Assembly (NCBI RefSeq): GCF_057098645.1
Contig: NZ_CM169472.1
Direction: 5' to 3' (one strand)
DNA: 64,000 nucleotides
Position 1 is the first letter of the stretch; each line of letters begins with the position of its first letter. The translations under genes and the position numbers were made by a program. Under the pieces are notes generated by a model. The model ran no database searches, was not told the DNA's origin, and worked only from the letters and a program-made list of their open reading frames with translations. Positions 42,187 through 46,048 of the stretch are shown piece after piece.

Positions 42187-42234
42187 CGCATTCAGCGCAT
42201 ATTTAGCAAATTACGTAATGGGTTCCTCGCGCGA

Positions 42235-42447
42235 TTATTTATACAGTTCGGCACTCATGGTGACGGTATTGCCCATGCGAGCGCTGGTAATTTTGTATTC
42301 AGAGGCGTTCATCTCTTTCGCTTTCTGCGCAATAACCGCTTCAGCGGAATCCAGTGTTGTACCGGTTGCTGTCACGCTTTGCGCCGATGCGTTAAACGCC
42401 GCGACAGAGAAAAGAGAAGCCGTAAAAATTGCGATGATCGTTTTCAT
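42235..42447 (-). CDS. DUF1471 (YhcN/BhsA/McbA-family) small periplasmic stress protein
   Basis: 70 aa from MKTIIAIFTASLFSVAAFNASA (signal peptide). Mature part ends TSA..GN....A.LYK, typical of the family. The ORF-track start at 42615 is an extension. Confidence 0.5.
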   Translation of the reverse strand: MKTIIAIFTASLFSVAAFNASAQSVTATGTTLDSAEAVIAQKAKEMNASEYKITSARMGNTVTMSAELYK

Positions 42448-42604
42448 GTTTATATTCCAGAGTGTCTTAATTGTTTGGCGTTTATTAACGCGATGGGGAG
42501 AGAATACGCCTGCTGCCTGATAACATAAATGATACAAATGGCAATAGACTATTCTGTTTTTGTTAATAATCAGACGCCGGACGTTCCGACGCCTGTCGAT
42601 CGCA

Positions 42605-43021
42605 TCAGGCAACAAAGTTGTCCTTTAGCGCCTTGAGACCATCCCGATAGATGCCGGTAAACAGCGCCTCGGCCTCTTCGTTCGTCACATTCACCGGGGT
42701 GAATTCACCGAACCATTCCACACGGGAAACCTGGCTGTCGGCGGTTTCATGAACGGTAATGGTGGAGAGGTAATCCACCACCGGGAACGGAGCCTGAATA
42801 ATGGAATAGGTATAACTGCGTTGACGGTTATCAAACGCTTCCAGACGTTCAACCACAGTGCCGCCGTCAGAGGTTGTCAGCGAACGAACGCGACCGCCTT
42901 CTGTCACTACGCTTTTCGGGATGAACGGCAGCCAGTCTGGCAGCGCATCAAAGCCGCCCATCAATTGCCATACGGCGTCGGCAGAAGCCGGAATTTCGAT
43001 CGATACAGTTGTTTTAGCCAT
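42605..43021 (-). CDS. SRPBCC (Bet v1-like / polyketide-cyclase-like) ligand-binding protein
   Basis: 138 aa. The pattern A.AD.VWQL...FD.LP.WLP looks SRPBCC-like to me. Family assignment is by inspection only. Confidence 0.5.
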   Translation of the reverse strand: MAKTTVSIEIPASADAVWQLMGGFDALPDWLPFIPKSVVTEGGRVRSLTTSDGGTVVERLEAFDNRQRSYTYSIIQAPFPVVDYLSTITVHETADSQVSRVEWFGEFTPVNVTNEEAEALFTGIYRDGLKALKDNFVA

Positions 43022-43046
43022 GATAATTTTCTCTTAATTTATAGGG

Positions 43047-43844
43047 TTACATTGTCAGGGTGTCGACGACGCCGCCATCGACGCGCAGGGCTGCCCCTGT
43101 GGTTGCCGAGGAAAGCGGTGACGCGAGATAAACCGCCAGATTCGCCACTTCTTCCACATCTGCTGCACGCTGGATGATGGAACTCGGACGCGAGGTTTTA
43201 ACAAACTCATCGGCCTGTTCACGCGCACTGCGTCCCGATTGTGCAGCGGCATCCGCCAGCATCTCTTTCAGGCCATCGGTAAAGGTTGGCCCTGGCAGAA
43301 TGGCGTTGACGGTCACACCGGTCCCCGCCAGTCGTTTCGCCAGACCATGAGAAACCGCCAGATTCGCGGCTTTGGTGACGCCGTAGTTGATCATGTCGCC
43401 AGGGATTGCCACGCCGGATTCGGACGAGACAAAGATAATCCGCCCCCAGCCCTGTTCCGTCATGCCTGGCGCATAGTGACGCGCCAGACGAACGCCGGAG
43501 AGGACGTTGACGTTATAGAAGTGCATCCACTCATCATCCGGAACGCTAAAGAAATCTTTATCGTTAAAAATGCCCAGATTATTGACCAGCACATCAGCCG
43601 TTGGGACTGCAGCGAGCAGCGCAGCCACGCCGTCTTCGGTGCTGAGATCCGCCACCACGCCGCGCAGTGACGCTGTGGGAGTTTGTGCCGCAATCGCAGC
43701 CATGGCGTCATCAACGCCGCTCTGTTTACGGCCGACGACAACCACCGTTGCGCCTGCTTTTGCCAGTCCGGCGGCGATACCCTGCCCAATGCCGGAGGTT
43801 GAGCCGCTGACCACCGCGACTTTACCTGTCAGATCCAGTTTCAT
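43047..43844 (-). CDS. Short-chain dehydrogenase/reductase (SDR)
   Basis: 265 aa from MKLDLTGKVAVVSGSTSGIGQGIA (glycine-rich NAD(P)-binding motif), with NNLG. The ORF-track start at 43946 is an extension. Confidence 0.8.
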   Translation of the reverse strand: MKLDLTGKVAVVSGSTSGIGQGIAAGLAKAGATVVVVGRKQSGVDDAMAAIAAQTPTASLRGVVADLSTEDGVAALLAAVPTADVLVNNLGIFNDKDFFSVPDDEWMHFYNVNVLSGVRLARHYAPGMTEQGWGRIIFVSSESGVAIPGDMINYGVTKAANLAVSHGLAKRLAGTGVTVNAILPGPTFTDGLKEMLADAAAQSGRSAREQADEFVKTSRPSSIIQRAADVEEVANLAVYLASPLSSATTGAALRVDGGVVDTLTM

Positions 43845-43863
43845 CGTTTTCTCACCAGGTTGA

Positions 43864-44874
43864 TTAACGGGTCGGCAGCGGAGCGTTTTCCGCAACCAGA
43901 TTTTGACGGCACATTTCTGCCCAGAATTCAGCCGGAACAGGCGCATTCAGTGCAGCCAGATCTTCTGCCATACGGCCAGGACGGCTGGAGCCAGGAATAA
44001 CCGCTGCAACGGCCGGGTTTGCCAGCGCGAACTGCAGCGCAGCCGCTTTAACGTTCACATTGAAACGTGTGGCAATGGCGTTAATTTGCGCCACTTTCTG
44101 CTGGATGGCCGCAGAGGCTTTCTGATATTCAAAGTGCTCGCCGCCTGCCAGTACGCCAGAGCTGTATGGACCGCCCACAACGATATCCACGTTCTGTTCC
44201 AGTGCTTCTGGCATCAGGCGTTGCAGCGCACGTTCGTGATCCAGCAGGGAATAACGCCCCGCCAGCAGGAACGCATCCGGCTTCGGTTCGTCCAGCGCCA
44301 GCGTCAGTTCGCAAGGTTCGACGCGGTTCACACCCAGTCCCCAGGCTTTAATCACACCTTCGTCACGCAAACGCGTCAGCGCACGAAATGCACCGGTACG
44401 GGCAATGTTGAACTGCTCCAGCCAGCTGTCACCGTAGAAGTCCTGCGCCGGGTCGTGGATCCAGACAATGTCCAGACGGTCTGTTTTCAGGCGTTTCAGG
44501 CTGTCTTCAATCGATCGCAGCGTGGCGTCAGCAGAGTAGTCATTCAGAATTTTGTTTTTCAGGCCGTGTTCGAACAGGCCACCTTTTTCACCGAAATCCC
44601 GTTTTGCCGGATCTTCCATTTCGTCCAGCATGATGCGACCGACTTTGCTACTCAGAACGTATTCATCGCGTGGATACTGAGACAGCGCTTCACCCATGCG
44701 GATTTCAGAAAGGCCAGAGCCGTACAGCGGCGCGGTATCAAAGTAACGCACACCCAGGTTCCAGGCTTCGCTCACGGTGGCGTGGGCCTCTTCTTCCGGA
44801 ATGGCACGGAACATGTTGCCAAGTGGTGCGCCGCCTAAGCCAATTTTGCCGGGGAGTAAATTTTTAATGCTCAT
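43864..44874 (-). CDS. Aldo/keto reductase
   Basis: 336 aa with FDTAPLYG and AKR-typical spacing. SD GAGGA. Confidence 0.8.
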   Translation of the reverse strand: MSIKNLLPGKIGLGGAPLGNMFRAIPEEEAHATVSEAWNLGVRYFDTAPLYGSGLSEIRMGEALSQYPRDEYVLSSKVGRIMLDEMEDPAKRDFGEKGGLFEHGLKNKILNDYSADATLRSIEDSLKRLKTDRLDIVWIHDPAQDFYGDSWLEQFNIARTGAFRALTRLRDEGVIKAWGLGVNRVEPCELTLALDEPKPDAFLLAGRYSLLDHERALQRLMPEALEQNVDIVVGGPYSSGVLAGGEHFEYQKASAAIQQKVAQINAIATRFNVNVKAAALQFALANPAVAAVIPGSSRPGRMAEDLAALNAPVPAEFWAEMCRQNLVAENAPLPTR

Positions 44875-44927
44875 AAGATGTCCTCAATTATTCGGTTTGG
44901 GTTAGGGCGTTTTTTTGCTATCGCCCT

Positions 44928-44951
44928 GTGACGTGGATCACAATACCTTGC
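44928..44951. promoter_or_regulatory. Candidate LysR-type operator dyad in the divergent promoter
   Basis: TCACAA-N12-TTGTGA inverted repeat between the divergent AKR and LysR genes. Confidence 0.35.
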
Positions 44952-45007
44952 GAGGTTGTGACTTGATAGGACATAATTCGTCTGACTTAAGTCCTTTGAG
45001 GTCTAAC

Positions 45008-45895
45008 ATGATTGATTTACGCCAACTGAAGTACTTCGTGGTGGTCGCAGAAGAAGAGCACGTGGGACGCGCAGCCGAGCGATTACATATCTCGCAATCG
45101 CCGCTGAGCCGCCAGATTGCACAACTGGAAGAACGACTGGGGCTGACGCTGTTTGAGCGTAATCAGCAGCGCATTCGCCTGACCGCTGATGGACAGACAT
45201 TCCTTGCCGAAACACGTTCGTTGCTGACACACGCCAACCGCCTGGAGTCGTTAGGCAAACGCCTGGGACGGGGGGAAGATGGGGGCTTGTGTATTGGCTA
45301 TATCGAAAACGCCATGCATTCCGGTGTACTTTCTACGGCGTTACGTACGTTACGTGTATCGCGTCCGAATGTGCATATCGCTCTTTACAGCCAACCACCG
45401 GCTACCCAGATTGAAGGCCTGCGCCAGCGCAGTCTCGATTTTTCTCTGGTCGATACGCCGCCCGCCGACAGCGAGCAGGATCTGGAATATATTCAGGTTC
45501 TGGATGATCGAATGTTGTTGGCCTTACCGCAAAATCATCCTCTGGCGCAGGAGGAAAACCTTGTCGCGTCACAACTTGGCGATGAGCAGTGGATTGCGGT
45601 GATTCATAACGACGATGCGCATTCTCGCGATCATTTTGTCGCCGCCTGTGTTAACGCCGGGTTTAATCCTGATATTCGCCTGGAAGCGGGTGAACCCCTC
45701 ACGGCATTAGGTCTGGTCGCTGCGGGATTAGGTCTGGCCTTAATTCAACATAGTCTGCGTCATAATGCGCCGGAAGGGGTGGTATTACGTGAATTGCCGT
45801 GGATGAATTATTCAACGCAATTATGGGCAGCCTGGCATAAAGCCAACCAACGTCCGCTGGTTTCCCATTTCCGCCAGATCCTGCGCGGTGAATAA
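45008..45895 (+). CDS. LysR-family transcriptional regulator
   Basis: 295 aa from MIDLRQLKYFVVVAEEEHVGRAAERLHISQSPLSRQI (LysR HTH). Divergent from the AKR-SDR gene set. Confidence 0.85.
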   Translation: MIDLRQLKYFVVVAEEEHVGRAAERLHISQSPLSRQIAQLEERLGLTLFERNQQRIRLTADGQTFLAETRSLLTHANRLESLGKRLGRGEDGGLCIGYIENAMHSGVLSTALRTLRVSRPNVHIALYSQPPATQIEGLRQRSLDFSLVDTPPADSEQDLEYIQVLDDRMLLALPQNHPLAQEENLVASQLGDEQWIAVIHNDDAHSRDHFVAACVNAGFNPDIRLEAGEPLTALGLVAAGLGLALIQHSLRHNAPEGVVLRELPWMNYSTQLWAAWHKANQRPLVSHFRQILRGE

Positions 45896-46048
45896 AACGT
45901 TAAGCGGGAACCATGAGTTCCCGCTTGATTTGAGATGTCAGTCCGCATCTGAGCTAATACACTTAAAGAGAATTCTGCCTTTTCGGGGACTCATCATTTA
46001 ACTAATGCCGGATGCGATGCTGGCGCGCCGCACCCGGCATTTTACGCA

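Follow-up and report, generated by a model that had tools for sequence, protein, structure and literature searches.

Organisation of the divergent control region

The region studied here is the 133-bp gap (44875-45007) between the start codons of an AKR gene, read on the reverse strand (44872-44874), and of a LysR-family regulator gene, read on the forward strand (45008-45010). These limits, already given in a preliminary description made from the letters of the window (the whole 64-kb stretch of DNA analysed), were borne out, and RefSeq annotates the same two gene starts in an identical E. coli O145 chromosome. Gene order and comparison with related loci also uphold the proposal that the gap is a divergent promoter region, placed between the regulator and an AKR-SDR-SRPBCC operon. 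The genes of this operon are separated by 19 and 25 bp, and their order is maintained across clades. A block of about 4.1 kb (41906-46023) is an insertion relative to K-12, between nadR and ettA, and was found in 482 of 5426 complete E. coli genomes. Beyond the cassette, a DUF1471 gene and a fragment of an N-ethylmaleimide-reductase-like gene are present. A literature search by gene families and RefSeq protein accessions returned no study on the LysR-AKR-SDR-SRPBCC cassette. The features discussed below are collected in Table 1.

Table 1. Position of genes and of observed or predicted elements in and around the control region.
Feature	Position	Strand	Remarks
Predicted regulated operon	42605-44874	-	AKR 43864-44874, SDR 43047-43844, SRPBCC 42605-43021
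Divergent control region	44875-45007		133 bp; AKR operon (-) versus lysR (+); kept in about 80 loci
AKR ribosome-binding site GAGGA	44881-44885	-	6 nt ahead of the ATG; plus-strand CCTC conserved in alignments
Hairpin AGGGCG-N12-CGCCCT	44904-44927	-	In the predicted AKR leader, +7 to +30
CRP-type core TGTGA-N6-TCACA	44927-44942		Perfect; centre 44934.5; candidate host CRP site
Inverted repeat TCACAA-N12-TTGTGA	44938-44961		Real, probably composite or incidental; varies between genera and within E. coli
Putative -10 of the AKR operon, TATTGT	44940-44945	-	TAnnnT invariant; predicted start about 44933
lysR promoter	44948-44977	+	-35 TTGCGA 44948-53, 18-bp spacer, -10 CATAAT 44972-77; predicted start about 44984
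Whole candidate operator GnC-N7-GAC-N18-GTC-N7-GTC	44960-45003		Two-fold symmetric about 44981.5
ABS-like unit, boxes 1 and 2	44960-44972		GAC-N7-GAC, general form GnC-N7-GAC; centre 44966, about -33 of the predicted AKR start
Weak AKR -35, TATCAA	44963-44968	-	Placed from a 17-bp spacer; overlapped by the ABS-like boxes
RBS-like LTTR box, boxes 3 and 4	44990-45004		AGTCC-TTTGA-GGTCT, imperfect 15-bp dyad, G-N11-C core
LysR-family regulator	45008-45895	+	295 aa

Conservation of the region among related loci

A scan with the LysR protein, retaining one genome per species, gave 80 loci, distributed over Escherichia, Trabulsiella, Yokenella, Klebsiella, Yersinia, Raoultella, Serratia, Ewingella, Xenorhabdus, Acinetobacter and many Pseudomonas. 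Copies from Paraburkholderia, Caballeronia and Janthinobacterium were added through exact-protein look-up. The cassette recurs in about 80 genomes of Enterobacterales, Acinetobacter, Pseudomonas and Burkholderiales, and about 90 related loci were compared overall. Wherever the flanks sufficed to judge, LysR faces AKR, and SDR and/or SRPBCC come next in nearly all cases, Xenorhabdus having AKR only. The length of the intergenic region ranges from 99 to 229 bp.

Twenty clade representatives from gamma- and beta-proteobacteria were then aligned, the alignment being anchored on GACATAAT. Not a single indel was found between positions 44938 and 45007; to the left of this block, length and content vary freely. 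The ribosome-binding sites are conserved as well. Twenty-one columns are invariant and fall in the two promoters and in four short GnC boxes described below: A44940, T44944, A44945, G44950, G44960, C44962, A44968, G44970 to A44975, T44977, T44987, T44988, A44990, G44991, C44993, G45000 and G45001. On the protein side, the winged-helix region of LysR, HVGRAAERLHISQSPLSRQIAQLEERLGL, is essentially invariant among the same 20 representatives, with two conservative changes outside the helix, and the recognition helix itself, ISQSPLSRQIAQLE, is invariant across clades. Since the helix that reads DNA does not change, its operator is expected to be invariant as well. Moreover, because nothing else explains conservation across such different hosts, we infer that the interval is recognised by a factor borne by the cassette, most simply the LysR protein.

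The TCACAA-N12-TTGTGA repeat is probably not the LysR site

The preliminary description had singled out an interrupted repeat, TCACAA-N12-TTGTGA, as a LysR-type dyad. The repeat does exist, as a single copy in the window; its position had been miscounted by 10 bp, at 44928-44951 instead of 44938-44961, and its identity as a LysR-type dyad is unsupported, in view of its conservation, its geometry, its position and the elements it overlaps.

We estimated how often such a repeat arises by chance. The exact 12-base pattern was found in 0 of 100 shuffles of the 64 kb, a figure to be read knowing that the pattern had been picked after looking. When the class of perfect inverted repeats with 6-bp arms and a spacer of 0 to 20 is considered, shuffling the interval 5000 times with dinucleotides preserved gives at least one in 29.7% of cases, and cutting the window into 133-bp tiles gives at least one in 43% of the tiles. 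Two repeats of this class are present in the interval, the other being AGGGCG-N12-CGCCCT (44904-44927), and 10% of the shuffles equal or better this number. As 30 to 43% of comparable sequences contain such repeats, the presence of TCACAA-N12-TTGTGA is not beyond chance.

The arms are not conserved. On the left, TCACAA or TCACAT is found solely in the ten closest enteric loci, Serratia has TAAAGA, and sequences beyond are unrelated. For the right arm, Klebsiella has TTATGA, Yersinia TTAGGA, E. whittamii CTGTGA, and Pseudomonas either TCGGAC or TTTTGA. The Klebsiella pair is TCACAT/TTATGA, and Pseudomonas retains neither arm. Even within E. coli the dyad is broken, in one arm each, by strain E69 (TCACAT) and isolate 68 (TTATGA). 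An unchanged reading head should go with an unchanged site, and variation of the arms next to an invariant recognition helix makes the dyad unlikely as a LysR site.

Its geometry differs as well from that of the boxes bound by LysR-type regulators (LTTRs), which are T-N11-A dyads (or N9-N10) located near -65 (PMC8407307). Like these, TCACAA-N12-TTGTGA is an interrupted inverted repeat in an interval divergent from a LysR gene, but it has a 12-bp spacer, its innermost pair is A..T, it lies away from -65, and it is not conserved together with the regulator. In particular, its symmetric pairs run from T..A at N22 to A..T at N12, with none at N9-N11; the arm centres are 18 bp apart, for 24 bp overall, and the centre of the dyad (44949.5) falls at about -16 of the predicted AKR start. 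Finally, each arm shares bases with another element: the left one (44938-43) overlaps the AKR -10 and the right half of the CRP core, and the right one (44956-61) runs into box 1 (G44960, A44961). We conclude that TCACAA-N12-TTGTGA is probably not the site of the LysR regulator.

A candidate LysR operator made of four GnC boxes

The indel-free block contains four boxes, which read GAC-N7-GAC-N18-GTC-N7-GTC in this locus, 44 bp from core to core. In its general form, GnC-N7-GAC-N18-GTC-N7-GTC, this arrangement was found between the two genes in 79 of the 80 loci, the exception being Xenorhabdus; elsewhere, neither 667 kb of DNA flanking the loci nor the 64-kb window yielded a match. The boxes go together with the invariant helix, and form two units. 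In the unit made of boxes 1 and 2, G44960, C44962 and G44970 to C44972 are invariant among the 20 representatives, and box 1 differs between clades in its middle base (GAC, GTC in Paraburkholderia, GCC in Janthinobacterium). In the unit made of boxes 3 and 4, A44990, G44991, C44993, G45000 and G45001 are invariant. This second unit, AGTCC-N5-GGTCT, is symmetric at four of its five pairs, around a core which is G-N11-C and not T-N11-A. Within each unit, the triplets can also be read as a direct repeat (GAC..GAC) rather than as a strict palindrome.

The centre of boxes 3 and 4 (44997) would be placed at about -64 of the AKR start, and the unit itself at +7 to +21 of the lysR transcript. If the predicted AKR start, on which both values depend, is right, the unit centres at -64 and -33 are 31 bp apart and fit the LTTR layout, in which the RBS lies near -65, the ABS at -35, and the two cover 50 to 60 bp in total (PMC8407307). 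Seen from the other side, the boxes span the spacer, the -10 and the +7 to +21 region of the predicted lysR promoter; this position, which is what was observed, is the usual arrangement for autorepression. It is therefore likely that the LysR dyad is AGTCC-N5-GGTCT, about 40 bp to the right of the repeat proposed initially, with boxes 1 and 2 as its partner unit.

Box 2 overlaps the lysR -10 and box 4 the lysR ribosome-binding site, and these overlaps could account for part of the conservation. Nevertheless, the GTCT of box 4 is retained in two Pseudomonas loci (L077 and L078) and in Janthinobacterium (L083) despite 11 to 15 extra bases before the ATG. Since box 4 is kept where such insertions bring a new ribosome-binding site, it is not merely the lysR ribosome-binding site.

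Other candidates in the same block were set aside. The pair T44987-N11-A44999, nearly universal, has no internal symmetry, and the G-N11-C units were preferred to it. The motif GGAC-N7-GTCT (44969-44983) was considered as a third LysR unit; its right half is not retained in Pseudomonas, Acinetobacter and beta-proteobacteria, and it is palindromic in Enterobacterales and may be a lineage-specific feature. An FNR-like sequence, TTGAT-N4-CATAA (44963-76), has a poor right half and is found in enterics only.

Boxes in diverged relatives of the regulator

We then compared the DNA upstream of regulators 44 to 64% identical to LysR, taken from a protein library at 50% identity, after right-alignment on the start codon. 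Most of them keep SQSPLSRQ in the recognition helix, and they face different genes, which encode a methyltransferase, a CMD protein together with an acetyltransferase, a 589-aa protein, or a muconolactone-isomerase-like protein and an AKR. Among the six informative relatives, four have GnC-N7-GnC at exactly the offset that 44991-45003 has here, -17 relative to the start codon, and two of these sequences are perfect palindromes (AGACC-AGAAA-GGTCT in L094 and AGACC-TGAGA-GGTCT in L097). At -38/-39, where box 2 lies, GAC or GTC was read in all of the six, with (A/G)GAC among these sequences, and two, L098 and L099, have box 1 at -48. Fits were partial for L095, without box 4, and L096, with an N8 spacing. 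The region upstream of L093, which comes from an AT-rich organism and is not divergently arranged, had no boxes, and was set aside as uninformative. As relatives with other divergent genes retain the offset of the box, the box appears tied to the helix and not to the cargo. We propose AGACC-N5-GGTCT, approximately, with its G-N11-C core, as the candidate LTTR box of this subfamily.

Two predicted outward promoters

The predicted lysR promoter, TTGCGA-18-CATAAT, scored 9/12 in a promoter scan of the window, and the scan also called its positional counterpart in Pseudomonas, Janthinobacterium and Acinetobacter. G44950 and CATA.T are its invariant bases in the 20 representatives. The same scan of the window called no minus-strand promoter for AKR, the E. 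coli -35 (TATCAA) being weak. A weak -35 is expected of an activator-dependent promoter. The putative AKR -10 is marked by the invariance of A44940, T44944 and A44945 in the 20 representatives (T-7, A-11 and T-12 of the hexamer), the middle three bases being variable: TATTGT in E. coli, and elsewhere TAATGT, TATCTT, TATATT, TACTAT, TAGGAT, TAGTAT, TAAACT or TATTCT. Homologues of the -35 are TGGACA in Janthinobacterium and TGGACG or TTGGAC in Pseudomonas, and a minus-strand promoter TGGACA-17-TATTCT is called by the scan at the homologous place in Janthinobacterium. The AKR promoter cannot lie much farther downstream, because intergenic regions of 99 to 100 bp leave a leader of 25 to 26 nt. Both transcription starts, near 44933 for AKR (minus strand) and near 44984 for lysR (plus strand), are thus predictions drawn from conservation.

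A CRP-type core over the predicted AKR promoter

The pattern TGTGA-N6-TCACA is present once in the window, for 0.09 copies expected, and was called a CRP-type site from its perfect core and its conservation. Both pentamers are invariant in all ten closest loci (Escherichia, Trabulsiella, Yokenella, Klebsiella, Yersinia and Raoultella), in which two to three of the six spacer positions change, as do the neighbouring positions 44943 and 44946-47. Known CRP operators (consensus TGTGA-N6-TCACA) have the same perfect 16-bp core, with conserved pentamers and a variable spacer among enterics; relative to the 22-bp CRP consensus, the A/T-rich flanks are poorly matched here (CCC on the left, ATA on the right). 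In the clade alignment, the core was not found in Serratia, Ewingella, Xenorhabdus and outward. Serratia and Ewingella possess CRP. This absence fits a site for a host factor added in one lineage, unlike the boxes, which are found cassette-wide, and the core is probably a host-specific overlay gained in the Escherichia-Klebsiella-Yersinia lineage.

The centre of the core would be at about -1.5 of the AKR start and about -49.5 of the lysR start, off the activating positions (-41.5, -61.5, -72.5 and so on) for both predicted promoters. Unlike in CRP operators of class I or II, no activating position is occupied here, and the putative AKR -10 and +1 are covered. As neither position is activating, occlusion of the promoter would be the simplest reading. 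A class II CRP-dependent AKR promoter, with a start at about 44893 and a -10 at about 44900-05, was also considered, and discarded: its best hexamer, TAACCC, matches at only 2 of 6 positions.

The core overlaps the -10, the +1 region and an arm of the leader hairpin, and its conservation in the ten close loci could partly reflect this. It may even be that the core is not a working site, and was kept in these loci merely through the overlap. We lean against this explanation while giving it appreciable weight, because the ten loci are closely related (LysR 91 to 100% identical) and 52% of the aligned columns are invariant in this set anyway, to which are added the lack of an in-phase activating position for either predicted promoter and the loss of the core in Serratia and Ewingella. 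However, the core matches at ten of ten positions, at an expectation of 0.09 per window, and these positions stayed invariant while the spacer and adjacent bases changed, which is how CRP sites evolve. Perfect CRP cores bind cAMP-CRP tightly.

Comparison with BenM, CatM and CbnR

The closest solved relatives of the LysR protein are 7w06 and the BenM/CatM/CbnR group. Among solved structures, its DNA-binding domain (residues 3-89) is closest to those of CatM, CbnR and BenM, with E values of about 1e-17 to 1e-18. BenM and CatM of Acinetobacter baylyi (targets benA and catB) and CbnR of Cupriavidus (target cbnA) are likewise encoded divergently from their target. Their operators, too, contain a 15-bp unit of the 4-N7-4 type near -64 and, some 30 bp downstream, another that covers the -35, and the site likewise overlaps the promoter or leader of the regulator's own gene.

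Differences concern the sequence read, the symmetry and the cargo. Half-sites are RGAC/GTCY here, with a G-N11-C core; BenM reportedly reads ATAC-N7-GTAT, that is a T-N11-A core, a motif attributed to Alanazi et al. 2013, a study that PMC11739112 cites. The helix reads SQSPLSRQ here and AQPPLSRQ in BenM and CatM, a difference that includes the first proline of BenM, and one may guess that the change from the T of BenM to G is tied to this Pro-to-Ser change in the helix. Unlike in BenM, CatM and CbnR operators, the two units here mirror each other about 44981.5. Lastly, the cargo is an AKR-SDR-SRPBCC set, and not aromatic catabolism as in those systems.

Proposed mechanism and alternative explanations

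Taken on its sequence, the interval is an ordinary LysR-type divergent promoter, with nothing surprising for the family. With a probability of roughly two in three, we read it as a compact, back-to-back LTTR control region in which LysR reads the GnC units, the initially proposed dyad is no such unit, and a CRP site is overlaid. Two overlapping sigma-70 promoters would fire outward, from starts about 51 bp apart. The cassette's LysR would most likely bind two units of 13 to 15 bp built on GnC-N7-GnC. The first, AGTCC-N5-GGTCT (44990-45004), may serve as the high-affinity recognition site, at about -64 of P_akr and inside the lysR leader; the other (44960-44972), centred at about -33, may be the activation site, and covers both the P_akr -35, which is weak, and the P_lysR spacer. 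By analogy with LTTRs of the BenM/CatM/CbnR type, a LysR tetramer on both units would repress lysR and, when an inducer is present, would activate the AKR-SDR-SRPBCC operon. The CRP core, centred at about -1.5 of P_akr, would occupy a repressing position.

Three other explanations were weighed against this reading, and bear on the dyad or on the boxes. That TCACAA-N12-TTGTGA (44938-44961) would itself be bound by LysR and control the reductase genes seems very improbable. It is a perfect repeat between the two genes, its right arm holds the invariant G44960, and published LTTR sites reach up to 24 bp, with dyad symmetry in their flanks (PMC8407307). These points are outweighed by the lack of conservation of the arms facing an invariant helix, two E. 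coli isolates (E69 and 68) each breaking one of them, by the lack of a symmetric T-N9..11-A core and a centre at about -16, and by the fact that each arm is accounted for by another element while 30 to 43% of comparable sequences have such a repeat. A milder version, which we still consider improbable, would make the dyad region a weak, lineage-specific third LysR subsite beside the conserved boxes, akin to ABS-10 or to site 3 of BenM, and used in the uninduced state. LTTRs are said to contact a low-affinity site near -10 when inducer is missing (PMC8407307), the dyad is centred at about -16, and a direct repeat TGTGAC.TG, at 44927 and 44957, is spaced by 30 bp, its 44927 copy putting a box-1-like sequence three helical turns leftward. 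Yet the dyad region holds no GnC-N7-GnC unit, the left copy is conserved in the enteric subgroup only and is shifted by 3 bp in Pseudomonas, and low-affinity subsites are of a kind that sequence alone cannot judge.

The boxes themselves could have been kept as parts of the lysR promoter, transcript start, leader or ribosome-binding site, the LysR site being elsewhere or poorly conserved. Box 2 indeed abuts the -10 CATAAT, box 3 is at the beginning of the predicted lysR transcript, and box 4 shares bases with the GAGG of the ribosome-binding site. We give this explanation little credit, about as little as the third subsite: box 4 persists where insertions displace the ribosome-binding site, G44970/A44971 and G44960/C44962 are outside any sigma-70 hexamer, the leader has neither a conserved RNA fold nor an Rfam match, and the perfect palindrome found at the same offset in relatives is the signature of a protein site, not of a promoter or leader.

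Going beyond the two-unit reading, and tentatively, the locus may possibly belong to a horizontally mobile LysR-AKR-SDR-SRPBCC sensor-reductase cassette, whose unusually rigid 44-bp two-fold operator (subfamily consensus AGACC-N5-GGTCT) would exemplify the DNA code of a wider SQSPLSRQ/G-N11-C subfamily of LTTRs, and in which, through the CRP site placed over the transcription start in enteric hosts, the catabolite signal of the host would veto the response to inducer. AGACC-N5-GGTCT is a candidate recognition code for a widespread LTTR subfamily without a studied member, and could aid in searching for inducers or in building biosensors.

Consequences for experiments

The value of the present map lies in corrected experimental targets, the LysR site being a prediction from sequence comparison. 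An EMSA on the whole 133-bp fragment, as suggested with the original proposal, would probably come out positive and yet mislead, since the boxes at 44960-45003 are on the same fragment. Mutations in either arm of the dyad would likewise mislead, as they would also hurt the AKR -10, the CRP core or box 1. On the corrected map the targets can be separated, with the regulator addressed at 44990-45004, CRP at 44927-44931 and the promoter at 44940-44945.

A hairpin in the predicted AKR leader

An Rfam scan of 44700-45200 gave no match at E <= 1, which ruled out a riboswitch or known leader in this segment, and RNAalifold gave no consensus structure for 11 predicted AKR leaders. As the register of the hairpin shifts between clades, leaders were also folded one by one. 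A 5'-proximal hairpin, of another sequence, is found at the same place in most clades, most z-scores being modest. In the locus studied here, the minimum-free-energy fold of the AKR leader hairpin is at -9.2 kcal/mol (z = -3.3), an observation that we take as supportive only.

Regulator and candidate operator in diverged loci

Beyond the cassette copies, the loci L094, L097, L099 and L095 carry diverged LysR-type regulators. The regulators are 44-49% identical and have the DNA-reading recognition helix in common. The loci also share the layout of the candidate operator, with fixed offsets from the start codons. The genes facing these regulators are unrelated: an LCM methyltransferase; a CMD protein with an acetyltransferase; a 589-aa protein of unknown function; and an MIase-like protein with an AKR. 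The same helix and operator layout opposite unrelated genes suggest that the regulator and its putative operator form a reusable module.

In the Janthinobacterium copy (L083, 2470-2500), GAGGTC.AAC is duplicated directly 5' of the lysR start (AAAGGTCTAATGAGGTCAACC). The duplication shifts the ribosome-binding site, and box 4, a GnC triplet of the candidate operator, is still in register with the other boxes. In the window, a direct repeat, TGTGACGTG / TGTGACTTG, is spaced 30 bp (three turns), its first copy being the left half-site of the candidate CRP core and its second extending into box 1.

Island and cargo

Compared with E. coli K-12, the block carrying the cassette is an insertion; it is found in 482/5426 complete E. 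coli genomes. The corresponding K-12 site, between nadR and ettA, holds ~135 bp of REP-type palindromic repeats. At the edge of the island lies a 63-aa ORF whose match to N-ethylmaleimide reductase is confined to the N-terminal ~50 residues of that enzyme, and RefSeq annotates a partial pseudogene nearby; this ORF is a gene remnant.

Coordinates of the island and of features within it
Feature	Position	Strand	Remark
Island	41906-46023		nemA-like fragment, DUF1471, SRPBCC, SDR, AKR, LysR
63-aa ORF	41995-42186	minus	N-ethylmaleimide reductase match NF007899, E 7e-13
SRPBCC gene	42605-43021	minus	
AKR gene	43864-44874	minus	
T7 run	44910-44916		loop of leader hairpin
Direct repeat, first copy	44927-44935		
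Direct repeat, second copy	44957-44965		

Among proteins of solved structure, the AKR is nearest to plant L-galactose dehydrogenases (E 2e-29) and the SRPBCC protein to Bacillus XoxI-like proteins, whose function is unknown (E 4e-52); neither likeness names a substrate. Operon gene loss concerns L023, L025, L036, L043, L082-L084 and L098. The P. batumici/gingeri subgroup and the beta-proteobacterial copies lack the SDR gene and have AKR-SRPBCC only. In Xenorhabdus, AKR is the sole operon gene kept, and box 4 is degenerate.

Variation in the AKR leader

Among E. coli strains, the T7 run is T6 in several (isolate 68, 504239, AR_0067), and single-base changes are also seen in the hairpin arms. 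In copies from Klebsiella, Trabulsiella odontotermitis, Yersinia and Raoultella (L006-L010), 12-17 additional bp lie in the stretch that separates the AKR ribosome-binding site from the first hairpin, and they form a short GC hairpin of their own (e.g. CTCCCG-TAAC-GGGAG); E. coli has no such insert. Longer AKR-leader inserts, of 35-115 bp, are present in some Pseudomonas copies (L022, L024, L037, L071, L080). They contain long palindromes, e.g. CTGTAGGAGCCGGCTTGC...GCAAGCCGGCTCCTACAG, and look like REP-type repeat elements. The lysR-proximal conserved core is unaltered in these copies.
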